Positions 31,657-47,426 of a stretch of DNA of 47,426 nucleotides are shown piece after piece. Below the pieces are notes generated by a model. It did no database searches. It saw nothing but the letters and a program-made list of their open reading frames with translations, and was not told the DNA's origin. This stretch comes from a virus. Lineage: Duplodnaviria > Heunggongvirae > Uroviricota > Caudoviricetes. The stretch covers positions 1 to 47,426 of IMG/VR virus record IMGVR_UViG_2778261504_000010; one strand, given 5' to 3'. The translations under genes and the position numbers were made by a program. Each line of letters starts with the position of its first letter. The first letter of the stretch is position 1.

Positions 31657-33702
31657 TTAACGGTTGTTTGTGCCGTCTTTCTTTAAATTGCGGTCACGCT
31701 CGGATGCAAAGAAATAAAGTTCTTCTTTTTTCTTTTCCTCCTTACGCTCCAGACCAAATCCAAAATTAAAGTCAGGTCTCTGCGTAATAGCCGGGGTAAG
31801 CTCGCGTTTAGCCTCTTCGATTTTCTGCGTGGCCCGTGCAATGCGGCCTCTGGCGCGTTTCTCCTGCTGCTGTTCGATAACAGCTTTCGGGAACGCATCA
31901 ACCTTATTACCGTTCCAGATGGCATCGCAGATATAAGAACCGTCCATCCGCCTGACAATCACGCTGTTTGCGTCGTGAATGTCGTAACAAACCCTGACTT
32001 CATTTCCGTGCTCTGCTGCCAGTTCTGTGGAGAAATAGATGTTTCTGAATAACACCACTTCACCGCGTCGCACCGTGCAGATGCTTTCCGGTCGGAACAT
32101 TTCATGCAGTTCTTCCGGCGACAGCATGTCGATTTCAGCCTTTTGCTCTTTTATCAGTTTCCGGCGATACGCTGCCGGGCTGTAATGTTCGCCATCCTCT
32201 TTGCGGGGAAGGCTGCTGTGTGGCCGGTTGTTATACCGTTTCACCTCCAGCTCTATTGCGGCCATCAGTTGCTCAAAAGTGGGGACTTCTCCCATCGCTT
32301 TAACCTGCCGCTTTGTCAGCTCTTTCCCTTTGTGGGTGGCCTTAATGGCTGACTGTGTGATGCGTTGCTGCATCATCACCGTTTCCTTGTCTGCATTTTT
32401 TGAGCAGTACGTCTGGAAACTCAGGGCCACATCTTTGGGTATTCCTTTGTTTGCCCGTTCTATTACCCCGCGCCCCTGCGGGTTACCAGGTGTCCCCGTG
32501 TGATGCTCCACACCCAGCCGGGGCAGAATCCCGGTAATATCGGCATCAAGCACCCGGTTTTTTTCACCGCCCCCGTTATCGGAGTAATAAATCAGCGGTA
32601 TTCCGTGTTGTGACATGCCATGACGCAATGCATCAGCAACGGCTATCACGTTCTCCGACAGGGACAGCGACCAGCCCACAATAAAGCGTTGCCCCGCATC
32701 CATAACCAGCGTCACTTCTGGCCGGAATGTATTCCCGGTGGCAGGGTTGAATGCCATCAGTTTCATACAGTGACCATCCCCGACCCATACCGCATTAACC
32801 GGTAATGTGCTCCAGTCGCGCCGCACAAAGGGATTGAGCGAACGCCAGGCTGAACCGGTGGAGCGGAAACGCTCTTTAACAATCACCGGGACGCTGCTTA
32901 ACACCCGTCTTACTGCGTGAACTGAAGGCAGTGCCGCCAGCATTCCCGCATCGTTCGCGTGTTTTTCATGCCACCAGGCTGAAAACTCGCGATACGCATA
33001 TTCAACGGTCGGGCGCTTCCATGAGCGATAGAACATAAAGAAATCGCTCAACCACCAGACCTGCTCCCACGGTGTTCCCTTATGATGACCGGGAGCCAGT
33101 AACGCCAGTAACTGATTGGCATCACCGCGCGCCATCAGCCAGGCGGAATACCATTCCTGTAAACTCCCTGTACTGACGCCAGTTCGCTTACCCTGTCGGG
33201 CATTGGCGGTATTACCGGCCACAATAACGCGCTCGGGCAAAGCCCCCTGGCGGATACCATCAACGATGTGTTTTATCGCTGCTGTCCTGGACATTCCTGC
33301 GTATTCACGCAGTTTATGCACTTCGGTAGCCAGCAATATCCGCGCATCAGCGATGGCCTTTTGCTTGTCGGTCAGTGCCTGGACTTCGCGTAATGCCAGT
33401 TCCGGGCATTTGACCATCACTTCCAGTTCATCACGAACGGTGACGTTCTTAACTGCCTTCTGCTCAACCACAACGGGCAGTTGTGTATCTTCCAGAATTT
33501 GCTGGGCTAGACGTTGGTGTAAAGCTTTCTGCACCTCCTCTGGAAAACTATCAATATGGTATTCAAAAGTAACACCTTTCACGCCAGCTCGTTGGCGGCT
33601 AACCCACCGTTGACGCTTTGCCATTCTAATCAGTGAGCTATTGTGTTTGGGGATACCAGCAATGCCCTGAAGTTCATTGAATGAATACCATTGGGATATC
33701 AT
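31657..33702 (-). CDS. MuA-like DDE transposase
   Basis: About 680 aa; N-terminus resembles the Mu winged-helix DNA-binding domain; start taken at MISQWYSF whose ATG overlaps the ner stop. Confidence 0.85.
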   Translation of the reverse strand: MISQWYSFNELQGIAGIPKHNSSLIRMAKRQRWVSRQRAGVKGVTFEYHIDSFPEEVQKALHQRLAQQILEDTQLPVVVEQKAVKNVTVRDELEVMVKCPELALREVQALTDKQKAIADARILLATEVHKLREYAGMSRTAAIKHIVDGIRQGALPERVIVAGNTANARQGKRTGVSTGSLQEWYSAWLMARGDANQLLALLAPGHHKGTPWEQVWWLSDFFMFYRSWKRPTVEYAYREFSAWWHEKHANDAGMLAALPSVHAVRRVLSSVPVIVKERFRSTGSAWRSLNPFVRRDWSTLPVNAVWVGDGHCMKLMAFNPATGNTFRPEVTLVMDAGQRFIVGWSLSLSENVIAVADALRHGMSQHGIPLIYYSDNGGGEKNRVLDADITGILPRLGVEHHTGTPGNPQGRGVIERANKGIPKDVALSFQTYCSKNADKETVMMQQRITQSAIKATHKGKELTKRQVKAMGEVPTFEQLMAAIELEVKRYNNRPHSSLPRKEDGEHYSPAAYRRKLIKEQKAEIDMLSPEELHEMFRPESICTVRRGEVVLFRNIYFSTELAAEHGNEVRVCYDIHDANSVIVRRMDGSYICDAIWNGNKVDAFPKAVIEQQQEKRARGRIARATQKIEEAKRELTPAITQRPDFNFGFGLERKEEKKKEELYFFASERDRNLKKDGTNNR

Positions 33703-33914
33703 AAGTATCTCTCCGGCCATATAGTTTCTGGCGACTCGCCAAGAGCTTCAGCGATAATTTTTTCTCCACGCGGATACGGCTTATCAAGAGCATTTTTCAA
33801 AGTGTACGGGGATAACGAGTTAAGCCTCCCTAAACCTGAAAGTGATAACCCTTTTTTTCGTAATTCAGCAATGACATCAGCTCGATGCCATCCGGTTCTT
33901 TTCTTGTGCTGCAT
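33699..33914 (-). CDS. Ner-like DNA-binding regulator
   Basis: 71 aa; WHRADVIAELRKKGLSLSGLGR...LKNALDKPYPRGEKIIAEALG closely resembles Mu Ner/Nlp. Confidence 0.8.
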   Translation of the reverse strand: MQHKKRTGWHRADVIAELRKKGLSLSGLGRLNSLSPYTLKNALDKPYPRGEKIIAEALGESPETIWPERYL

Positions 33915-34120: not shown

Positions 34121-34525
34121 ATGATTGCCAACAAAGAGTGGTTTACTGCACAAGAATTAGCCAACTTAGGACTACCTGGCTTCCCTAAAGATAAAAGTGG
34201 GATAAATCGTCGCGCCAACAAAGAAGGGTGGTTACGAAGGCAAAAAGCAAATGTTCGAGGGATCGCTTATGAATTTCATATTTCAGCCTTACCAATGGAA
34301 GCCCAACAAGTACTGGGGAACACTTCAGGTGTAGTTGGTGCTTCTATTGACATGGAGCTTTTAGAAAAGCTCATTGAATCAGTTGAGATTCTTTTAACTA
34401 AAAAACGAAAAAAAATGGAGCCACGAGAAAAAGCCAAGCTCATATCCATGTTGTACAAAGCATGTAAAAAATCAGACTCTATTGATGATGAAATTATCAG
34501 TAATATCATAGAATTAGTTGCATGA
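34121..34525 (+). CDS. c-like repressor (Mu-type winged-helix DNA-binding domain)
   Basis: 134 aa; WFTAQELANLGLPGFPKDKSGINRRANKEGWLRRQKANVRGIAYEFHISALPMEAQQVL parallels the N-terminus of the adjacent transposase; divergent from ner. Confidence 0.55.
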   Translation: MIANKEWFTAQELANLGLPGFPKDKSGINRRANKEGWLRRQKANVRGIAYEFHISALPMEAQQVLGNTSGVVGASIDMELLEKLIESVEILLTKKRKKMEPREKAKLISMLYKACKKSDSIDDEIISNIIELVA

Positions 34526-35170: not shown

Positions 35171-35459
35171 TGGTTTTATAGGCCAAGAACCCTTGGCCTT
35201 ATCTAATTGATACAATCAACCCGATCTAAATCATCATAATCATCTTAAAGCCTGCTTGGTTAAATGTATTAAAAACAACCTAAGTTTGCTGCATAATCTG
35301 AGCAAATTCACCCAGAAAAAAACGTAAAAAAAAGCATTTTTGCGCATTTTCTTCAAAACGATCCAGAATCGGTGAAATCTCCCACATCCCGCACCAATCA
35401 AGGCCTACAGGCTTATATTGACTGCTCGGACTCAGCCCAGAATTGATCACCACCCCACA
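35171..35459. mobile_element. Mu-like prophage terminal region (transposase-binding end) and junction with host
   Basis: Non-coding; AAAACG/CGTTTT-type motifs at 35321-35370; element ends ...ccaca at 35459, where the ynfF reading frame breaks. Confidence 0.5.
35181..35205 (+). terminator. terminator-like hairpin after the 209-aa gene
   Basis: Stem ggccaag/cttggcc (35181-35198) followed by T-rich ttatctaatt. Confidence 0.4.
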
Positions 35460-36586
35460 CAACCCTGACAAATATAAGCAGGTTTTGCTGAACCGATCTC
35501 TCGTGCCAACTGGATAATTTTTTCTGCCGGGATGCTGGTGATTTTTGCTGCCCATTCCGGCGTTTTAGCTATGCCGTCAGGCCCTTCGCCCAGAATATAG
35601 GCTTTATAATGCGCGTTACGTGGTGCGTTGGCGGGCAGCGTTTTTTCATCGTAACCAACACAATATTTGTCGAGAAATGGCTGATCGACCATGTTTTCAG
35701 TAATCAGTACCCAGGCAATCGCACAGGCCAGTGCGCCATCGGTGCCAGGGCGAATGGGCAGCCATTCATCTTCACGCCCGGCAGCAGTGTCGTTATAACG
35801 TGGATCGATGACGATCATGCGTGCGTTTGAACGTTCGCGGGCTTGCTCGACGTAGTAAGTGACACCACCGCCGCTCATCCGCGTTTCTGCCGGGTTATTT
35901 CCGAACATAACGACCAGTTTCGTATTGGCGATATCATCCGGGCTGTTGCCATCATTGGCACCGAACATATAACTCATTGCGGCACTGATCTGTGCGGTAC
36001 TGTAGCTGCCATAGCGACTGAGAAAACCACCGCAAGAGTTCATCAGACGGTACGGGACGTTTGAGTTGGTGATGTTTCCGCCATCTACGCCTGTTCCGTA
36101 CAGGACATGTACAGCCTCATTGCCGTAATCTTTCAGGATCCGCCGAAGATTATCACTGATGGTATCCAGGGCTTCGTCCCAACTTATCCGTTCAAATTTA
36201 CCTTCACCGCGCTTGCCGACGCGCTTCATGGGATATTTCAACCTATCAGGATGATTCATCCGTCGGCGGATAGAGCGCCCGCGTAAACACGCTCGAACCT
36301 GATGGTTACCGTAGACGTCGTCACCTGTCGTATCAGACTCCACCCAGTACACGGTGTCATCTTTCACATGCAAACGTAACAGACAGCGGCTCCCGCAGTT
36401 AACGGTGCAGGAACTCCAGACCGCTTTCTCTTCTACCGGAGCCTCTGCCGCCCGGACCATTTGGGAAAATGGCAGAGTGAAAGCACTGCTTGCCAGCGCA
36501 AGACTGCCAAGTGCGGAGGTTTTCATCAGACTTCTACGGCTGATTTCAGCCTTCATGAGCGCCTCTGTGGTATGGATTTTCATCAT
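35450..36586 (-). pseudogene. ynfF: ynfF', 5' fragment of DMSO-reductase-family catalytic subunit truncated by the prophage
   Basis: 378 aa with Tat motif SRRSLMK; paralogous to the full-length downstream gene up to ...AKPAYICQG, then CVGW-stop where the paralogue continues WGPQRQ. Confidence 0.75.
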
Positions 36587-36643
36587 TACTCACTTATTGC
36601 TTTTCAAACAAAATGTCATGCCAGAATTTATGGTTGTCGTGGG

Positions 36644-39070
36644 TTATATTTTTTCGATCTCGACCAGATTAGTGTGCTGCGGGTTTCCCTTCGCCAGTGG
36701 TGAAGGGCGCAGAGTGGTTAGCGTATTCACACAGCCGCCATGGTCGATTTTATCGCCAGACATATTGGCCTCGTGCCAGGCTCCCTGGCCCATAGCGCTA
36801 ACTCCAGGGAGAATACGTGGTGTTACTTTGGCTGGTAGCCGAACTTCGCCACGATGGTTAAACACCCGCACCATATCGCCGTTGGCAATCCCACGTTTCT
36901 GCGCATCTATAGGGTTGATCCACACCTCCTGACGGCAGGCAGCCTTCAGGAGATCAATATTGCCGTAGGTCGAGTGAGTACGGGATTTGTAATGGAAACC
37001 AAACAGTTGCAGTGGGAAGGTTCTACGTTCAGGGGAGTTCCAGCCTTCAAAGGTTGAGGCATAAACTGGCAATGGGCTTATCACTTCATCTTTTTCCAGT
37101 TCCCAGGTACGGGCAATTTCCGCCAGCCTGCTGGAATAAATTTCAATCTTACCGGAAGGCGTTTTAAGTGGATTTGCCTCGGGGTCGTCACGAAATGCTT
37201 TGTAGGCGACAAAATGGCCATTGGGATCTTTACGCTTATAGATACCCATTTTTTTCAGTTCGTCGTAAGACGGTAACGCCGGATCTTTGGCAAGCATTTT
37301 GGCGTACAGATGTTGTAACCATTGTTCCTGCGTGCGACCTTCTGTGAACTTTTGATAGACGTCAGGTCCAAGACGTTTCGCGACTTCACTCAGGATCCAG
37401 TAAATCGGTTTGCGTTCGAATTTTTCGCTGGTGACAGGCTGGAGGAAAATGAGATATCCCATGTTACCGGCGTAGTCGTTAGGAATAATATCTTCCTGCT
37501 CAACGGTCATCAGGTCTGGCAGCAGAATGTCGGCATATTTTGCCGATGAGGTCATAAAGTTTTCGATGATCACAATCATTTCGCATTTCGATTCGTCCTG
37601 CAGAATTTCATGCGTTTTGTTGATGTCAGAATGCTGATTAACGAGGGTATTTCCCGCGTAGTTCCAGATGAACTTAATGGGCACATCCAGTTTATCTTTG
37701 CCGCGGACGCCGTCGCGGATTGCCGTCATTTGCGGACCATGATCGATAGCATCTGTCCAGCTGAAGCAGGAGATTGACGTTTTGACCGGATTATCCAGCA
37801 CCGGCAGGCGTTCTATGGTAATGGTATAGGTCGATTCACGCGCGCCACTATTTCCGCCGCTGATGCCGACATTGCCCGTCAAAATAGGTAACATAGCAAT
37901 AGCGCGTGCAGTCAGTTCGCCGTTTGCCTGGCGTTGCGGCCCCCAGCCCTGGCAGATATAAGCGGGTTTTGCTGTGCCAATTTCACGCGCCAGTTTGATG
38001 ATACGGTCTACCGGGATACCGGTAATTTGCGAAGCCCACTGCGGCGTTTTCGCTGTGTTATCATCACCTTCACCAAGAATATAGGCTTTATAGTGACCAT
38101 TTTTGGGTGCATCTGCGGGTAAGGTTTTTTCGTCATAGCCGACGCAGTATTTATCGAGAAAAGGTTGATCAACGAGATTTTCGTTAATCAATACCCAGGC
38201 AATACCCGCAACCAGCGCGGCATCGGTGCCCGGGCGAATAGGGAGCCATTCATCTTCACGACCAGCAGCCGTATCGGTATATCGCGGATCGATAACAATC
38301 ATTTTGGCGTTCGATTTCTCGCGCGCTTTTTCAAGAAGATAAGTGATGCCAACGCCGCTCATGCGGGTTTCTGCCGGGTTGTTACCAAACATCACGACCA
38401 GCTTGCTGTTTTCAATATCCGTGGTGCTGTTGCCATCATTACTGCCGTAGGTGTAGGGCATGGCACAGGAAATTTGCGCGGTGCTGTAGGAGCCATACTG
38501 ATTGAGTGAACCGCCGTAGCAGTTCATCAGGCGTTTGACCGCCGAGGCTGATGGCGAAGAGCGGGTCATATTGCCGCCAACAATCCCCGAAGAGTACTGA
38601 ATATATACAGCCTCATTGCCATATTGTTCGACGGTTTTTTTCAGGCTACTGGCGATAGTATCCAGGGCTTCATCCCAGCTAATCCGTTCGAATTTGCCTT
38701 CACCGCGTGTACCCACGCGTTTCATTGGGTAATTCAAGCGATCGGGATGATTAATACGCCGGCGGATGGAGCGACCGCGCAAACAGGCGCGTACCTGATG
38801 GTTGCCGTACTCATCGCTGCCGGTATTGTCAGTTTCCACCCAGGTCACTTCATTATCTTTAACATGTAGACGAAGTGCACAGCGGCTACCACAGTTGACG
38901 GAACAGGCACCCCAGATCACTTTTTCGCTGGCCTGTTGTACCGTTGCCGCTGCACTGCGCAGGGTGAACGGTAAAGAAAAACCGCCTGCAGCCAGCGCCA
39001 GAGAACCTATCGCGGTTGATTTAACGAGTGTTCTGCGGCTGATGCCCACCATTCGGTCATTTTTGGACAT
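36644..39070 (-). CDS. ynfE: DMSO/selenate reductase-family molybdoenzyme catalytic subunit
   Basis: 808 aa; Tat signal SRRTLVK; Cys cluster CSVNCGSRC; promoter-proximal of the ynfEF pair. Confidence 0.85.
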   Translation of the reverse strand: MSKNDRMVGISRRTLVKSTAIGSLALAAGGFSLPFTLRSAAATVQQASEKVIWGACSVNCGSRCALRLHVKDNEVTWVETDNTGSDEYGNHQVRACLRGRSIRRRINHPDRLNYPMKRVGTRGEGKFERISWDEALDTIASSLKKTVEQYGNEAVYIQYSSGIVGGNMTRSSPSASAVKRLMNCYGGSLNQYGSYSTAQISCAMPYTYGSNDGNSTTDIENSKLVVMFGNNPAETRMSGVGITYLLEKAREKSNAKMIVIDPRYTDTAAGREDEWLPIRPGTDAALVAGIAWVLINENLVDQPFLDKYCVGYDEKTLPADAPKNGHYKAYILGEGDDNTAKTPQWASQITGIPVDRIIKLAREIGTAKPAYICQGWGPQRQANGELTARAIAMLPILTGNVGISGGNSGARESTYTITIERLPVLDNPVKTSISCFSWTDAIDHGPQMTAIRDGVRGKDKLDVPIKFIWNYAGNTLVNQHSDINKTHEILQDESKCEMIVIIENFMTSSAKYADILLPDLMTVEQEDIIPNDYAGNMGYLIFLQPVTSEKFERKPIYWILSEVAKRLGPDVYQKFTEGRTQEQWLQHLYAKMLAKDPALPSYDELKKMGIYKRKDPNGHFVAYKAFRDDPEANPLKTPSGKIEIYSSRLAEIARTWELEKDEVISPLPVYASTFEGWNSPERRTFPLQLFGFHYKSRTHSTYGNIDLLKAACRQEVWINPIDAQKRGIANGDMVRVFNHRGEVRLPAKVTPRILPGVSAMGQGAWHEANMSGDKIDHGGCVNTLTTLRPSPLAKGNPQHTNLVEIEKI

Positions 39071-39268
39071 AACTCACTCCCTGTTCTTTATCGTTATATA
39101 AATGTTTATATATTGAATATTTAGCGCGCTAACAATAGAGGGAGTCTACCCATTTTGGGTTAAGAATTATTAATCCATATCAATAGAAGGGTATGAGTAA
39201 TAAGGTGGGATTATGTTGTATGTTCAAATCGCCGGATGTGTCGTATCCGGCGTTCAGTCGATAATGTA

Positions 39269-39574
39269 TTACTGCGGTTCGGCAGGCGCGCCATCCTGGG
39301 TAGACTGCGCGGGAGCAGAGACGTTACCGCTGGTGGTGCGGGTATAGAGAATTTTATGCGTATCATTAGCGCAATGGCCGACGACCTGGGAATCAGGCTG
39401 ATCAACCTGGTCATTGGGTACAATACTTAACGTGAAGCTGCTTTCGGGTACGCCATTATTGATAATGCGCTGTGATATATCGCTCTGTATGCGCTCACAG
39501 GATCCCGGCGCGGCGAGTACCACGGGTGAGGCGAGGGCGAGCAGAAGCGCGGCACAGCAGGTTGAGAGTTTCAT
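39269..39574 (-). CDS. ynfD: YnfD, small secreted protein
   Basis: Start taken at MKLSTCCAALLLALASPVVLA (101 aa). Confidence 0.7.
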   Translation of the reverse strand: MKLSTCCAALLLALASPVVLAAPGSCERIQSDISQRIINNGVPESSFTLSIVPNDQVDQPDSQVVGHCANDTHKILYTRTTSGNVSAPAQSTQDGAPAEPQ

Positions 39575-39681
39575 CATAAGCTCCTTACGCGAAGATAACT
39601 TCTTTAAGCATAGCATTTAACGTGTAAAGTACTGTATTTGCTACTATGATTGAGAATCATCTCTACTCTCTGGTGACTGTT

Positions 39682-40392
39682 GTGAAATACAAATTACTAC
39701 CATGCTTACTCGCGATATTCCTCACAGGATGTGACCGCACAGAGGTAACACTTTCATTTACCCCTGAGATGGCCAGTTTCTCTAATGAATTCGATTTTGA
39801 TCCGCTGCGTGGTCCGGTAAAAGATTTCACTCAGACATTAATGGATGAGCAAGGTGAAGTGACGAAACGTGTTTCTGGGACTTTGTCGGAAGAAGGCTGT
39901 TTTGATTCACTCGAATTACTGGATCTGGAAAATAATACCGTGGTCGCTCTGGTACTGGACGCCAATTATTACCGTGATGCCGAGACGCTGGAGAAGAGAG
40001 TACGTTTACAGGGAAAATGCCAGCTAGCAGAATTACCTTCTGCCGGGGTGAGTTGGGAAACCGATGATAATGGCTTCGTGATTAAAGCCAGCAGCAAACA
40101 AATGCAGATGGAATATCGCTATGATGATCAGGGTTATCCGCTGGGTAAAACCACGAAAAGTAACGACAAAACATTATCTGTCAGCGCCACGCCATCAACG
40201 GATCCGATCAAAAAATTAGATTACACAGCGGTTACTTTACTGAATAATCAACGGGTTGGTAATGTAAAACAGAGCTGTGAATATGACAGTCACGCTAATC
40301 CGGTGGACTGTCAGCTAATCATTGTTGATGAAGGAGTAAAACCCGCCGTCGAACGGGTTTACACCATCAAAAATACGATCGATTATTATTAA
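39682..40392 (+). CDS. ynfC: YnfC lipoprotein
   Basis: GTG start giving MKYKLLPCLLAILLTGC lipoprotein signal. Confidence 0.7.
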   Translation: MKYKLLPCLLAIFLTGCDRTEVTLSFTPEMASFSNEFDFDPLRGPVKDFTQTLMDEQGEVTKRVSGTLSEEGCFDSLELLDLENNTVVALVLDANYYRDAETLEKRVRLQGKCQLAELPSAGVSWETDDNGFVIKASSKQMQMEYRYDDQGYPLGKTTKSNDKTLSVSATPSTDPIKKLDYTAVTLLNNQRVGNVKQSCEYDSHANPVDCQLIIVDEGVKPAVERVYTIKNTIDYY

Positions 40393-40394
40393 TG

Positions 40395-40955
40395 CTATTG
40401 TGCGGTCGGCTTCAGGAGAGTCTGACCCGGTGTTTTGTGCTCTGCCAGATACTGATGCTGGAATATACACATGCGAATGGCATTACGATATTGACCATTA
40501 ATAAAGAACTCGTGCATCAATTCACCTTCAACCGAAAAGCCAAGCTTGCGGTAAATGTGAATCGCTTTTTCATTCTCTTTATCAACGATCAGATACAGCT
40601 TATAGAGATTGAGAACGGTAAAGCCATAGTCCATTGCTAATTTGGCGGCACGGGTTGCCAGACCTTTCCCCTGATACTCCGGGGAGATAATTATCTGAAA
40701 TTCTGCGCGGCGATGAACATGGTTAATTTCCACCAGCTCCACCAGACCGGCTTTTTCGCCGTCACATTCCACCACAAAGCGCCGTTCGCTCTGATCGTGA
40801 ATATGCTTATCATACAGATCAGAGAGTTCAACAAAGGCTTCGTAGGGTTCCTCAAACCAGTAACGCATCACACTGGCGTTGTTGTCGAGTTGATGTACAT
40901 AGCGTAAATCTTCACGCTCCAGCGGGCGTAGCTTAACACTGTGGGCGCTTGGCAT
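40395..40955 (-). CDS. speG: spermidine N1-acetyltransferase
   Basis: 186 aa, matches E. coli SpeG as recalled ([41 protein letters not shown]...). Confidence 0.9.
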
Positions 40956-40989
40956 AACGTGTCCTTACATTCCTTAAATCAATAACAGG

Positions 40990-41331
40990 TTAGGGGGTAA
41001 TAACGCGGCCAGTTCGACGGTCCAGGCAGCGCAAAGTATTGGGCTCCCAGTAGGCATTGATGTTGGCGCTTTGCTCACATTTATCGCGGTTATCAAAAGC
41101 GGCGTCGGCTTTATCCCACTCTTTTTCAGTGCGTTTATTCACTTTCTGGCGCAGATTGCGCGTGTCATTCCATTGCTCTTTTTCCATAGCGGCGTGCTGG
41201 CGGCTTTGTGCACTGTCGCCAGACTCAATCACCAGTTTGTTAGTTTCGGCATGAACAGTTGTGCTCAATGCCAGTGCGCAAGGCAGCAGAATAGCGAGCA
41301 GGCCGATTCGTTTGCTGAGAGTGATTTTCAT
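40990..41331 (-). CDS. ynfB: YnfB, secreted protein
   Basis: 113 aa with signal peptide; synteny speG-ynfB-ynfA. Confidence 0.75.
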
Positions 41332-41465
41332 AATTCATTCCCTGTATGAATGATTAAAGGTGATTCTACACCATCCACTGCGGACGCAAAACGTACCAGG
41401 AGGGTGTTTATATTGATGATATTATGTCGCCCTATAACTATACATGATGTCAATAAGAGACAAAG

Positions 41466-41792
41466 ATGATTAAAACAACGTTACTATTTTTTGCTACTGC
41501 GCTGTGTGAAATTATTGGATGCTTTCTGCCCTGGTTGTGGTTAAAACGAAACGCCAGTATCTGGCTGTTGCTTCCGGCGGGGATTTCACTGGCGCTGTTT
41601 GTCTGGTTGTTAACGTTGCATCCAGCGGCGAGTGGGCGTGTTTACGCGGCTTATGGTGGCGTTTATGTCTGCACGGCGTTGATGTGGCTGCGCGTTGTGG
41701 ATGGCGTGAAACTGACTCTTTATGACTGGACGGGGGCGTTGATTGCGCTTTGCGGCATGTTGATCATTGTTGCGGGCTGGGGGCGCACGTAG
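41466..41792 (+). CDS. ynfA: YnfA, small inner-membrane protein
   Basis: 108 aa, four hydrophobic helices. Confidence 0.75.
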
Positions 41793-41997
41793 GAACATAA
41801 ATCCATTTTATCAATAAGATAAGAGGAAGTGTCAGCTGACAAAAGGTATTCTATTTCATCTTTTGTCAACCATTCACAGCGCAAATATACGCCTTTTTTT
41901 GTGATCACTCCGGCTTTTTTCGATCTTTATACTTGTATGGTAGTAGCTCAGTTGCGTAGATTTCATGCATCACGACAAGCGATGCAAGGAATCGAAC

Positions 41998-43212
41998 ATG
42001 AAGATCGTAAAGGCTGAAGTTTTTGTTACCTGTCCGGGGCGTAATTTCGTCACATTAAAAATCACCACTGAGGACGGTATTACGGGCCTTGGGGATGCCA
42101 CCCTCAATGGACGTGAGCTTTCCGTGGCCTCTTATTTGCAGGATCACCTTTGTCCGCAGCTTATTGGTCGCGATGCGCACCGTATCGAAGATATCTGGCA
42201 GTTTTTCTATAAAGGTGCTTACTGGCGTCGCGGTCCGGTTACGATGTCGGCCATTTCAGCGGTTGATATGGCGCTGTGGGATATTAAAGCCAAAGCTGCC
42301 AACATGCCGCTTTACCAGTTACTCGGCGGCGCGTCTCGTGAAGGGGTGATGGTTTATTGCCATACCACCGGTCACAGTATTGATGAAGCTCTGGATGATT
42401 ATGCCCGTCATCAGGAGCTGGGATTCAAAGCCATCCGCGTGCAGTGCGGAATCCCTGGTATGAAAACCACCTACGGCATGTCGAAAGGTAAAGGTCTGGC
42501 TTATGAACCCGCAACCAAAGGACAGTGGCCGGAAGAGCAGCTGTGGTCGACGGAGAAATACCTCGATTTCATGCCGAAATTGTTTGACGCGGTACGTAAC
42601 AAGTTTGGTTTTAATGAACATTTGCTGCATGACATGCACCATCGCTTAACGCCTATTGAAGCGGCGCGCTTTGGTAAAAGCATTGAAGATTATCGCATGT
42701 TCTGGATGGAAGACCCGACGCCTGCGGAAAACCAGGAATGCTTCCGTCTCATTCGCCAACATACCGTCACACCCATCGCAGTGGGTGAAGTCTTCAACAG
42801 CATCTGGGACTGCAAACAACTGATTGAAGAGCAACTCATCGATTATATCCGCACCACGCTGACCCATGCAGGCGGAATTACCGGTATGCGCCGGATTGCC
42901 GATTTTGCTTCGCTGTATCAGGTACGTACTGGCTCACACGGTCCTTCCGATTTGTCACCAGTCTGCATGGCTGCGGCGCTGCACTTTGATCTGTGGGTCC
43001 CCAATTTCGGTGTCCAGGAGTACATGGGTTATTCCGAACAAATGCTCGAAGTCTTCCCGCACAACTGGACTTTCGATAACGGCTATATGCATCCGGGAGA
43101 CAAACCGGGTCTTGGCATCGAATTCGATGAAAAGCTGGCGGCGAAATATCCCTATGAACCTGCTTATCTGCCAGTCGCACGTCTGGAAGATGGCACGCTG
43201 TGGAACTGGTAA
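41998..43212 (+). CDS. rspA: starvation-sensing protein RspA (enolase-superfamily dehydratase)
   Basis: Start at [27 protein letters not shown] with AAGGA RBS. Confidence 0.85.
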
Positions 43213-43223
43213 GGAGTAAGGTA

Positions 43224-44243
43224 ATGAAAAGCATTTTAATTGAAAAACCGAATCAACTGTCGATTATCGAACGTGAAATACCCACCCCGTCAGCGGGTGA
43301 AGTACGAGTAAAAGTGAAACTTGCCGGAATTTGTGGTTCAGATAGCCATATTTACCGTGGGCATAATCCTTTTGCGAAATATCCGCGCGTCATTGGTCAT
43401 GAATTCTTTGGCGTCATTGATGCGGTGGGTGAAGGTGTGGAAAGCGCCAGAGTCGGTGAACGCGTTGCTGTCGATCCGGTGGTCAGCTGTGGGCATTGCT
43501 ATCCGTGCTCTATAGGTAAGCCGAACGTTTGTACGACACTTGCTGTATTAGGTGTGCACGCTGACGGTGGTTTCAGTGAATATGCCGTGGTTCCGGCAAA
43601 AAATGCGTGGAAAATTCCTGAAGCAGTGGCCGATCAATATGCGGTGATGATCGAACCTTTTACCATTGCGGCTAACGTTACCGGTCATGGTCAACCGACT
43701 GAAAATGATACCGTTCTGGTTTATGGTGCCGGTCCAATCGGCCTGACGATCGTTCAGGTATTAAAAGGCGTCTATAACGTTAAAAATGTGATTGTTGCCG
43801 ATCGCATTGATGAACGACTGGAAAAAGCGAAAGAGAGCGGGGCAGACTGGGCGATTAATAACAGCCAGACACCGCTTGGCGAGATTTTCGCTGAAAAAGG
43901 CATCAAGCCGACATTAATTATCGATGCGGCTTGTCATCCTTCTATCCTGAAAGAGGCCGTAACGCTGGCTTCTCCAGCGGCACGTATTGTATTGATGGGC
44001 TTCTCCAGTGAACCGTCTGAAGTGATTCAGCAAGGAATTACCGGAAAAGAACTCTCTATTTTCTCTTCACGCTTAAATGCAAATAAATTTCCGGTTGTTA
44101 TCGACTGGTTAAGTAAAGGGTTAATTAAACCAGAAAAATTAATTACCCATACGTTTGATTTCCAGCATGTTGCTGATGCCATTAGTTTATTTGAACAGGA
44201 TCAAAAACATTGCTGCAAAGTCTTGCTCACTTTTTCTGAATAA
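43224..44243 (+). CDS. rspB: starvation-sensing protein RspB (Zn-dependent dehydrogenase)
   Basis: Start at MKSILIEK; GHEFFG and Cys-rich zinc motifs. Confidence 0.85.
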   Translation: MKSILIEKPNQLSIIEREIPTPSAGEVRVKVKLAGICGSDSHIYRGHNPFAKYPRVIGHEFFGVIDAVGEGVESARVGERVAVDPVVSCGHCYPCSIGKPNVCTTLAVLGVHADGGFSEYAVVPAKNAWKIPEAVADQYAVMIEPFTIAANVTGHGQPTENDTVLVYGAGPIGLTIVQVLKGVYNVKNVIVADRIDERLEKAKESGADWAINNSQTPLGEIFAEKGIKPTLIIDAACHPSILKEAVTLASPAARIVLMGFSSEPSEVIQQGITGKELSIFSSRLNANKFPVVIDWLSKGLIKPEKLITHTFDFQHVADAISLFEQDQKHCCKVLLTFSE

Positions 44244-44300
44244 TACCAATAACGGCGAGTAAGTAGTACGCATCTTACCTCTTTTTTAGAGATAACCATT

Positions 44301-44411
44301 ATGACAATAGAAAAACATGAAAGAAGCACTAAGGATTTGGTGAAAGCAGCAGTATCGGGATGGCTGGGCACTGCGCTTGAATTTATGGATTTCAAGAGTC
44401 ATGCGTGTTAA
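44301..44411 (+). pseudogene. N-terminal fragment of an MFS metabolite:H+ symporter-type transporter, truncated at prophage junction (possibly ydfJ)
   Basis: 36 codons MTIEKHERSTKDLVKAAVSGWLGTALEFMDFKSHAC; the G-x-A-L/M-E-x-x-D-F motif is typical of ProP/KgtP-type transporter N-termini. Confidence 0.4.
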
Positions 44412-44430
44412 CTATTTGATAAATATTAAA

Positions 44431-45726
44431 TTAATTTTTCATTGATTCGTTATGGGGCATGGTTGGGGCAAACTCGCTTAACTGTGTATTTAACAAAGCT
44501 ACCTGTGCATTATTGTTTTCAGACATCCATTTTCCGTATACCTGAAATACCATTTGCGCATCTGCATGGCCCATCTGGTTTGCTATAAATGCCGGGTTAG
44601 CACCAGCTGTCAGCGACCAGCAGGCATAAGTATGTCTCGACTGATATGATTTGCGGTGGCGGAGGCCAGCGCGCTTTATCGCTGCGTCCCACATCTGCCT
44701 TATTGAGTCAACGGTAAAATGGTCACCATAATTTTTTACTCTCACTGACACTTCAGGTTGAAAAACAAAGGTGCATTTTTGTTTTTCTGTTCTGCCGAAC
44801 TCTCTGAGGTGAACGTCAATAATATGTTCTTTGCTCAGCCTCGTTAGTGTCATCTGACTCCTGAGAGCGTCGATTGCAGGCTTGATAAGGTGAATTACCC
44901 GATTGGTACCAGCCTGTGTTTTCGGTACCGTAAAACGATCTTTTGCTAAATTTCTCCTGATCATCATTGTTCCATTTTTCAGATCTATGTCCTCCCACCC
45001 AAGCGCACACAGTTCACCAGGGCGAATGCCTGTATAAACAGAAACACACCATAAATTTTTGGCCTGCTGATTTCTGCAGGCATCGATAAGACGGATAAAT
45101 TCCTCCCGTGAAAGAGGATCAGGAATGGTTCTTGATTCCTTTAATGGCGAGATCCCCTTAAACGGATTATCTGCCAGGTAACCGTTATCAACACCAAACT
45201 GGAACACGGCGTAAAGATTTGTCATGTAATTATTTACGGTGACAGCCGATCTCCCCGGTTGTGTAACAATATAATTACTTTTTGGGATCTGGTATCCAGT
45301 AAGTAACTCTTTACGTACCGCCAGCAATTTTTCTTTATTAATCGACGATGCAAGATTTTTTTCACCGATTATGCTCAGAATATTTTTGATGACGGCACGG
45401 TACGTGTTGAGTGACGTTTTTGCGACTTCCGTTTCTTTCAGTGCCAGAAATTTTTCAGCCAGTTCCTTTATGGTTAAATCTTGTCGGGCCTCACCAAATT
45501 TTTCCAGATTGTGTGAGGAGGGAAACTGTTTTGCATAGTCGAAAACGCCGGTTTTTATTGCATAACAAACAGAGGCGCGCAGCTCACCTGCAATGCGCCT
45601 GTTTTTTGTCGTGTCAGGAACCCCCAGATTTTCCCTGACTCTTACACCTTTATAAACAAACCAGATACGTAATTTCCCTCCATGGTTTTCCACGCCTGTC
45701 GGATATTTCATTTTAGCTTCTCTCAT
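44431..45726 (-). CDS. tyrosine-type phage integrase
   Basis: C-terminal catalytic region with HTYACW and GHADAQMVFQVYGKW; true start may be the internal MKYPTG. Confidence 0.8.
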   Translation of the reverse strand: MREAKMKYPTGVENHGGKLRIWFVYKGVRVRENLGVPDTTKNRRIAGELRASVCYAIKTGVFDYAKQFPSSHNLEKFGEARQDLTIKELAEKFLALKETEVAKTSLNTYRAVIKNILSIIGEKNLASSINKEKLLAVRKELLTGYQIPKSNYIVTQPGRSAVTVNNYMTNLYAVFQFGVDNGYLADNPFKGISPLKESRTIPDPLSREEFIRLIDACRNQQAKNLWCVSVYTGIRPGELCALGWEDIDLKNGTMMIRRNLAKDRFTVPKTQAGTNRVIHLIKPAIDALRSQMTLTRLSKEHIIDVHLREFGRTEKQKCTFVFQPEVSVRVKNYGDHFTVDSIRQMWDAAIKRAGLRHRKSYQSRHTYACWSLTAGANPAFIANQMGHADAQMVFQVYGKWMSENNNAQVALLNTQLSEFAPTMPHNESMKN

Positions 45727-45745
45727 TGGTTAGTATTGTTTTTAG

Positions 45746-45997
45746 TCAAGTAAGATGACGTCTTGGTCTTGCTGATGCCTGACGTTCAATCCAGCGATCA
45801 ATTTCTTCCAGGTTGTAAAAGCATGGGCTGTTATCCCATGGCATACCGTCATGGGCTACATGCTTATATTCCCTTCCTTCCATAAACGATTTTTCCCTGG
45901 CTTTTTTTAGCGTTCCTTTTTTTATTCCTTTCAGCGCAATTAGCTGTTCTTCGGATACCCATTTACCGGGAGAGACAATCATGATTACTTCGCTCAT
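45746..45997 (-). CDS. excisionase-like small protein
   Basis: 83-aa basic ORF immediately upstream of integrase; assignment by position. Confidence 0.45.
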   Translation of the reverse strand: MSEVIMIVSPGKWVSEEQLIALKGIKKGTLKKAREKSFMEGREYKHVAHDGMPWDNSPCFYNLEEIDRWIERQASARPRRHLT

Positions 45998-46066
45998 CGC
46001 TTTTATCTCTTACTTCAGATGAGCGCCGGTTGCAGAATACCAGTCACAACCGGCGATGGTTGAACA

Positions 46067-47155
46067 TTAAAAATCAGCCTGACTCGGGATCAGTTTTTGT
46101 ATCGTAGCTGTAACGTATTTTGCCTGGTGACGGGCATCATCCAGCGCATTGTGGCGCACGCCTTCAAATGGAATAACTGTTCTGGCATCAAAGTCGATTG
46201 TTTTTCCCAGCTCAACGATTGTGCGTACATCGCGATCGTTGTAGTAGCGCCACGGGCAGGGGATGTCCAGACGTTCGTATGAGGTGCGCAAAATTGCGTT
46301 ATCGAAAGTTGCACCATTACCCCATACCTGAACGAATTTTTCATCTGAGTATTCGTTGATGAACTCCCGAAACCGCGAAAGGGCATCCTTCAGTTTTACC
46401 TGGTCTGTTAAAATGGCAGCTCTGGCTTCACTGGACTGCTTCAGCCACCATTCGATGGTTCCACCGTTAGGAACAGCCCCTGTATTCATTGCGTCAGTCA
46501 GACTGATAGCGATATAAAATACTGGCCCGATTTCCCCTGTTTGTGGGTCGAAGAAAACCGCACCAATAACCACGATGGGCGCATTGGTGTTGGTTCCCAT
46601 TGTTTCAAGGTCGATCATCAGGTGATACCACACTCTGCTGGTGGATGTGATAACGTGATGACCGTTCACCGCAATTAAGGGATCTGCCGTCTCGCCAGTT
46701 TCATTATCGCTGGCGTGGTCCTGAGCGCTGCCAGCATTCTCCTTGTGTGGATGTTCAGCGTCTTCCATTTCCTCCGGATCATTTTCCTGAACTTCAACCT
46801 GATTCTCTTCATCGAATGTTTCCTGGTATGTTGCGTCGCCCATCACCGCGCCACAATCAGGGCAGTTGCCGCCACCGCTCTGACCGCAGGCGGTGCAGAC
46901 TTTTTCCGGCTCCTGTTGCGCTACTGGTTCAACCTGTTTCGTTTCTGGCTCGTTTTGTTGCGCATTTGGGCTGTTTTGTTCCGTTTTCTGGTCGTTCTGT
47001 TCCGATTCTTGCTGGTTCTGGTTTGCAGAGTCGCGGGTTTCAATCCCCTTCACCCATTGCGGATCATTCGGGTCGCTAATCCCTGCAACAAATTCTCCGC
47101 GAGAGGCAGCAAGCAACTTATCGGCGTCAGGCTGGCTGATATTGGCTGCCTGCAT
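46067..47155 (-). CDS. exonuclease-domain protein with acidic Gln/Glu-rich N-terminal region and Cys4 motif
   Basis: 362 aa; [16 protein letters not shown]; C-terminal MIDLETMG...[12 protein letters not shown]...HNALDDA resembles DEDD-type 3'-5' exonucleases as recalled. Confidence 0.5.
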
Positions 47156-47426
47156 AATTTTGTTTACTTCTTCAGCGGTAACTTTTACCGGCTCTGGTTG
47201 TGCGGTCGTGTCAGATGCACCAGTATTTTGTTGTGAACCTGAGTATGTACCGTTTTTGCGGGCAAAATATTCTTCTTTCGTGATTTCAGTAGCCCCTGCA
47301 GTCAGCGCCTTATTCAGACCAGAAAGTTTGTTTGCGCGACCGTATTTTTGTAATGTTCCGGTGACCTCATCTTCACAGAAATTTTCACGCCATTAGCATT
47401 CCGGTATTCGTATAACTTCCTTCTGT

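Follow-up and report, generated by a model that had tools for sequence, protein, structure and literature searches.

The sequence around position 44393 of the window (the whole stretch of DNA analysed here, 47426 nucleotides long) is almost certainly the integrase-proximal end of a lambdoid prophage of the Qin or 'PPydfJ' type, that is, an attL (B-O-P' in the lambda convention) that would have been produced by Int-mediated recombination between the phage attP and an attB lying within the host gene ydfJ. A preliminary description made from the window alone had proposed a transporter gene fused to phage sequence beside an integrase, and alignments with both the intact locus and the attP of phage mEp460 bear this out, the transporter gene being ydfJ. 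The junction is the textbook Qin/PPydfJ attL, annotated in K-12 and published, already known and ordinary. It is also among the commonest prophage junctions in E. coli: a 120-bp probe centred on the crossover matched 2716 of 5426 complete E. coli genomes (at least 80% coverage), so that the junction is not a product of chance. The arrangement running from the 3' end of rspB through int and xis to the 3' end of the exonuclease gene was found in 2299 of the 5426 genomes (2.2-kb probe, at least 80% coverage), and the uninterrupted rspB-ydfJ locus in 2010 of the 5426 (at least 80% coverage). In a published set of 638 strains, 48% were reported to carry Qin at the ydfJ 5' end (PMC6379469), and ydfJ has been described as a phage integration locus (PMC8112680). 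The importance of the junction beyond annotation is slight. The features of the window are as follows.

35460-44393, no strand: host island, ynfF'-ynfE-ynfD-ynfC-speG-ynfB-ynfA-rspA-rspB-ydfJ', 8934 bp, 99.8% collinear with strain Z1323CEC0019
43200-44243, plus strand: rspB (Zn-dependent oxidoreductase), the host flank (ORF; Pfam ADH_N and ADH_zinc_N; RefSeq annotation of matching loci)
44301-44411, plus strand: chimeric 36-codon ORF, counterpart of K-12 ynfP (ydfJ codons 1-31 plus KSHAC)
44378-44396, no strand: imperfect 19-bp att sequence TGAATTTATGGATTTCAAG (four-way comparison with the intact attB, the mEp460 attP and the two K-12 Qin junctions)
44383-44393, no strand: exact 11-bp identity segment TTATGGATTTC, common to attB, attP and both prophage junctions
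44394-44430, no strand: start of the phage P' arm, from the core to the integrase stop, collinear with the mEp460 attP
44431-45726, minus strand: full-length tyrosine integrase, 431 aa (Pfam; 97% identity to mEp460 Int)
45746-45997, minus strand: excisionase, 83 aa (PF06806 DUF1233 'putative excisionase', 1.6e-31; annotated as excisionase family in matching genomes)
46067-47349, minus strand: 3' part of a prophage exonuclease gene (Pfam Rv2179c-like 3'-5' exoribonuclease, 3e-68; annotation in the closest genome)
47350-47426, plus strand: left end of an IS66-family insertion sequence (GTAATGTTCCGG...), with 98.8-100% matches elsewhere

The chimeric ORF begins with an ATG 57 bp past the rspB stop (44243), and 19 bp (44412-44430) separate its own stop from that of the integrase gene. 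Compared with an uninterrupted ydfJ (L003, strain 2015C-3905), its codons 1-31 (93 nt, 44301-44393) carry a single synonymous difference, after which the two sequences diverge; the following bases (44394-44411) encode KSHAC and a stop, and identical bases follow the core in the mEp460 attP, which marks them as phage sequence. When the intact ydfJ was searched against the window by BLAST, the sole match was 44301-44396. Against TIGR00883 'metabolite/H+ symporter' (cutoff 443.45) the intact YdfJ protein reaches 462.9 bits, and the uninterrupted loci are annotated 'MHS family MFS transporter YdfJ'; the 36-residue fragment by itself matches no Pfam family, as expected at such a length. By sequence comparison, ydfJ is an MHS-family metabolite:H+ symporter gene of the MFS superfamily, and the 36-codon ORF is its 5' end joined to phage DNA. 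Joining the window up to 44393 to the distal piece of ydfJ in K-12 reconstituted an ORF of 455 codons, and this reconstruction gave the 800-bp chimeric probe used for the uninterrupted rspB-ydfJ loci. The preliminary description had seen the short ORF as beginning like a metabolite:H+ symporter, which the match to the first 31 codons of ydfJ and the TIGR00883 score of the intact protein corroborate, and as ending with five unrelated codons about 20 bp from the integrase stop, as the KSHAC tail and the 19-bp spacing attest. Its coordinates, lengths and spacing agree with the ORF calls on the window, and the alignment with an uninterrupted locus that it had suggested as a check places the end of homology after 44393, at 44393/44394. 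As a consequence of the interruption, ydfJ is inactivated in the strain carrying the window.

The attachment site was delimited by aligning the window with the uninterrupted locus L003 and the two junctions of K-12 Qin, and then also with the mEp460 attP (L005). The window runs collinear with attB through 44393 on its host side and with the post-core sequence of mEp460 from 44394 on; at the distal Qin junction of K-12, the pre-core side is collinear with mEp460 and the post-core side with ydfJ. The mEp460 attP itself holds an identical core between the identical two arms, and together the window, the uninterrupted locus, the K-12 Qin junctions and the mEp460 attP fit the B-O-P', B-O-B', P-O-B' and P-O-P' patterns. 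The att sequence measures 19 bp in attB (TGAATTTATGGATTTCCAG), 18 bp in attP (TGAATTATGGATTTCAAG) and 19 bp in the window, where it is attB-type on the left (with an extra T) and attP-type on the right (with A at 44394), as expected if exchange took place inside the 11-bp segment. For the PPydfJ prophages, the legend of S7 Fig in PMC8112680 gives an '18- or 19-bp att sequence', which matches the 19 bp of attB and the window and the 18 bp of attP in length. The boundary of the prophage is fixed to the base by these alignments, with the core at 44383-44393. The preliminary description had predicted the core near 44385-44430; it lies at the left edge of that range, the remainder of which is P' arm.

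The core occurs once in the window, and a search across the window for a second core repeat, or the other end of the prophage, found none, nor any further ydfJ sequence; the prophage runs beyond the window. With attR outside the window, it is only for K-12 Qin, and not for the window's strain, that a second, directly repeated core is demonstrated at the far end of the prophage. Within the P' arm, a match to the IHF consensus (TATCAAATAGTTA, 44409-44421, minus strand) marks a candidate IHF site that is suggestive only, because the pattern occurs four times over the whole window, where chance would give 1.8. A scan of 44100-46100 for sigma-70 promoters and terminators yielded fewer sites than shuffled sequence.

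We propose that the tyrosine integrase of the phage recombined attP and an attB located within codons 26-32 of ydfJ, strand exchange taking place within the 11-bp core. Integration split ydfJ: the promoter, the ribosome-binding site and codons 1-31 remained beside rspB, and this 5' portion now reads into the phage P' arm to give the 36-residue chimeric ORF, called YnfP in K-12. On the prophage side, the int gene ends 37 bp past the core, with xis next to it. The remaining 424 codons of ydfJ would follow the distal end of the prophage, in DNA that the window does not cover, and that distal end is predicted to read CACCTGTGAATTATGGATTTCCAGTTATATTCGCTCGG, i.e. the P arm, the core and then ydfJ from codon 32 onward. 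Excision could still be possible, because the integrase looks catalytically competent.

This apparent competence is inferred from the domains and residues of the protein. The integrase ORF was described as full length, and indeed it encodes 431 residues at 97% identity to mEp460 Int, whose annotated start corresponds to Met6 (45711) of the window ORF; neither int nor xis, both full length, contains a frameshift or a stop. The catalytic domain (PF00589 Phage_integrase) spans residues 206-397 (67 bits, cutoff 27.1; 2e-18) and is preceded by an N-terminal arm-type DNA-binding domain (PF12167 Arm-DNA-bind_2, 7e-24, residues 9-71). A MAFFT alignment of the integrase with lambda Int was rejected, as it misplaced box II, setting lambda H308 against H365 and R311 against A368, and residue assignments rest instead on HMMER alignment with Tn1549 Int and BLASTP alignment of the Arg I region. 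By BLASTP, R235 (TGIRPGEL) aligns to R212 of lambda Int (TGQR212VGDL), and also to TGLRISEL of Tn1549 Int, and the HMMER alignment to Tn1549 Int structures places K269 in PKTQAG, R364 in SRHT (MRHT in Tn1549), H387 in MGH, and Y397. H387 sits in QMGH, and Y397 is the sole tyrosine nearby. Of the RHRY tetrad for which the preliminary description recommended a search, R235, R364 and Y397 are present, as are K269 and H387, but the first His is replaced by a tyrosine, giving R-Y-R-Y: box II reads YQSRHT, with Tyr361 in the place of lambda H308, three residues ahead of R364. Y397 follows H387 by 10 residues; in tyrosine recombinases the usual distance from the second His to the Tyr is 9. Both Tyr361 and the 10-residue spacing are unchanged in mEp460 Int and in the IntQ remnant of K-12, and for this reason they are probably a property of the lineage and not damage. 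The whole corresponds to a lambda-type integrative module, with an Int that has an arm-type domain, an adjoining xis, and a core shared by attB, attP and both junctions with the arms swapped, the junctions in this comparison being that of the window and both of K-12 Qin.

K-12 Qin offers the closest annotated counterpart. The MG1655 annotation gives 1632277-1652745 for the cryptic prophage Qin (Kim), 1652728-1652838 for ynfP and 1651512-1652708 for the intQ pseudogene, and the ynfP/intQ' junction (1652708-1652838) shares the host site, the 11-bp core and the P' arm with the window. The two sequences form a gap-free alignment (96.5% identity) that extends from rspB across the junction to 45590, where IS2E begins in K-12. 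The statement in the preliminary description that K-12 carries Qin beside rspB with a decayed integrase is supported by this alignment: the intQ remnant is orthologous to the int of the window, retains 385 in-frame codons with no internal stop and 9 amino acid differences, and has lost its first 46 codons at an IS2 (IS2E), whereas the int of the window is complete. K-12 Qin also lacks xis and most of the exonuclease gene, having IS2E instead, whereas the window has a complete xis and an exonuclease gene that is cut at 47350 by a different element, of the IS66 family. The order dicB-ydfD-exonuclease-(xis)-int is alike in K-12 and in the closest relative of the window, and the 36-residue product is identical to K-12 YnfP (sequence in PMC6001520, Table 1). 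With int and xis complete, the window is a marginally better candidate than K-12 for an excisable element or a source of active ydfJ-targeting integrase.

Beyond K-12, the lambda-like PPydfJ prophages of STEC and EPEC (Nakamura et al., 2021; PMC8112680) occupy the same integration locus, often in tandem clusters with T3SS effector genes, whereas nothing of this sort was seen in the window's 3 kb of prophage. Among temperate lambdoid phages, mEp460, HannyBb, Tritos and PhiR42_1 have int-xis-exonuclease DNA about 94% identical to that of the window, and mEp460, a viable phage, shares in addition the Int protein (97% identity) and the attP core and arms; these four are free, complete phage genomes, whereas the window holds only the int end of an integrated element. 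The likeness to lambda is one of organisation: both have an arm-binding tyrosine recombinase with an excisionase, an attP directly downstream of int, and an AT-rich P' arm with an IHF-like site, which in the window is a consensus match only. In contrast, the proteins are only about 21-25% identical, the arm-binding domain of the window's integrase belongs to a different family (PF12167), lambda His308 is a tyrosine in the window, and lambda integrates between gal and bio at a different core, not inside ydfJ.

The exonuclease gene, 826 codons long in the closest complete genome, is interrupted in the window at 47349/47350 by the left end of the IS66-family element, which begins GTAATGTTCCGGTGACC, and the in-frame stop of the exonuclease ORF arises within IS sequence. 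Homology to every complete genome ends at 47349; the last 77 bases are 98.8-100% identical to sequences in unrelated chromosomal and plasmid contexts, and in one of these (L007) they lie directly upstream of the IS66-family genes tnpA, tnpB and tnpC. An IS66-family insertion at 47350 is found in none of the 5426 complete E. coli genomes.

Over 35460-47349, the closest complete genome is that of Z1323CEC0019 (NZ_CP148401.1), at 99.8-100% identity. Beside rspB, it holds only int-xis-exo-ydfD-dicB, followed by IS1203 and then by ydcH-rimL-tehAB (L001, 42642-44700). The latter genes lie about 150 kb away in K-12, and their attachment to the prophage implies, from gene order, an inversion or large rearrangement in Z1323CEC0019 with an endpoint in the ydfJ prophage, the element there being a remnant. 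By analogy, the element in the window may likewise be a rearranged remnant. Z1323CEC0019 was considered as a stand-in for the part of the prophage beyond the window and dropped, no attR for the window's strain being obtainable from it, as its remnant ends at IS1203/ydcH and it carries neither the IS66 insertion nor the Mu-like insertion of the window.

Two other origins of the junction were weighed against site-specific integration into ydfJ. The 36-codon ORF might be an independent small-protein gene that resembles a transporter by chance, the true att lying elsewhere, either between rspB and the ORF or at the 3' end of int. Tagged YnfP has been detected in K-12 (PMC6001520), and deletion of ynfP slowed recovery from nitrogen starvation according to a preprint (bioRxiv 10.1101/2020.03.30.016519), both of which would suit such a gene. 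Expression is, however, what one would expect of a remnant that kept the promoter and start of ydfJ, and the detection of YnfP in K-12 indicates that this promoter and start site still work there. We give this explanation virtually no chance: the first 93 nt are those of intact ydfJ bar one synonymous difference, homology breaks exactly at 44393/44394, and the bases from 44394 on continue in the mEp460 attP, which together rule it out. A related speculation accepts the fusion and grants its product a role of its own, in that YnfP, with its 31 YdfJ residues and KSHAC, would be a functional prophage-made small protein, or transcription from the ydfJ promoter antisense to int would dampen int and stabilise the prophage. 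Such a function could exist, given that the protein is identical in K-12 and the window, that the junction occurs in about half of the genomes, and that the product is detectable and its deletion has a phenotype, but we consider it very improbable. The int end might otherwise have been moved beside rspB by homologous recombination or rearrangement between prophages, and not by site-specific integration in this lineage. Recombination and inversions involving ydfJ prophages are documented (PMC8112680), and Z1323CEC0019 has such a rearrangement inside its prophage. Nevertheless, the succession rspB-ydfJ'-core-P'-int is base for base the canonical one, as in K-12 and the 2716 genomes, with the host side collinear with intact loci to 44393 and the phage side with attP, and a rearrangement deeper in the prophage would leave the formation of the junction unaffected; we hold this origin to be highly improbable, and retain integration at ydfJ.

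A separate matter is the present state of the element, which does not bear on the identity of the junction. Here the chances appear evenly divided as to whether, like K-12 Qin, it has decayed to an immobile ('grounded') remnant, the junction being a fossil and the intact int incidental. Inactivated integrases are common at the ydfJ locus (K-12; PMC6379469; PMC8112680), the closest complete genome keeps only a five-gene remnant ending at IS1203, and in the window itself the exonuclease gene breaks off at 47350 in an IS66-family element. Against this, int and xis retain their full reading frames, and mEp460, whose integrase is 97% identical, is a viable phage. Moreover, the exonuclease is an accessory early gene, and its loss need not block excision.

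The host DNA upstream of the junction is bounded by another prophage. The preliminary description held that two prophages bracket an 8.8-kb host segment, and the island between the Mu-like and ydfJ prophages does extend over 8934 bp (35460-44393). Homology of the window to complete genomes starts at 35460, inside ynfF, and positions 1-35459 are filled by a Mu-like transposable prophage, whose sequence ends ...CA at 35459. At the end abutting ynfF it carries a Mu-type transposase (31657-33720; Mu-transpos_C, HTH_Tnp_Mu_1 and rve domains), a 71-residue HTH_35 protein in the position of Mu Ner (33699-33914), and, facing outward, a repressor-like gene (34121-34525) that encodes a Mu DNA-binding domain and stands where Mu has its repressor. 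Positions 1-200 consist of a GC-rich repeat. No Mu-like prophage was found at the ynfF site in any of the 5426 complete genomes, and no complete E. coli genome combines all three features of the window. The locus lies near the replication terminus, where two prophages 8.9 kb apart, together with IS elements, could serve as substrates for rearrangement; such rearrangements have already been described for this locus. The Mu-like insertion cuts ynfF to 379 codons and leaves ynfE intact. The ynfE ORF of the window is uninterrupted over 808 codons (36644-39070), and the Z1323CEC0019 annotation lists its counterpart (L004, 8462-10888) as a pseudogene, with a stop inside the gene.
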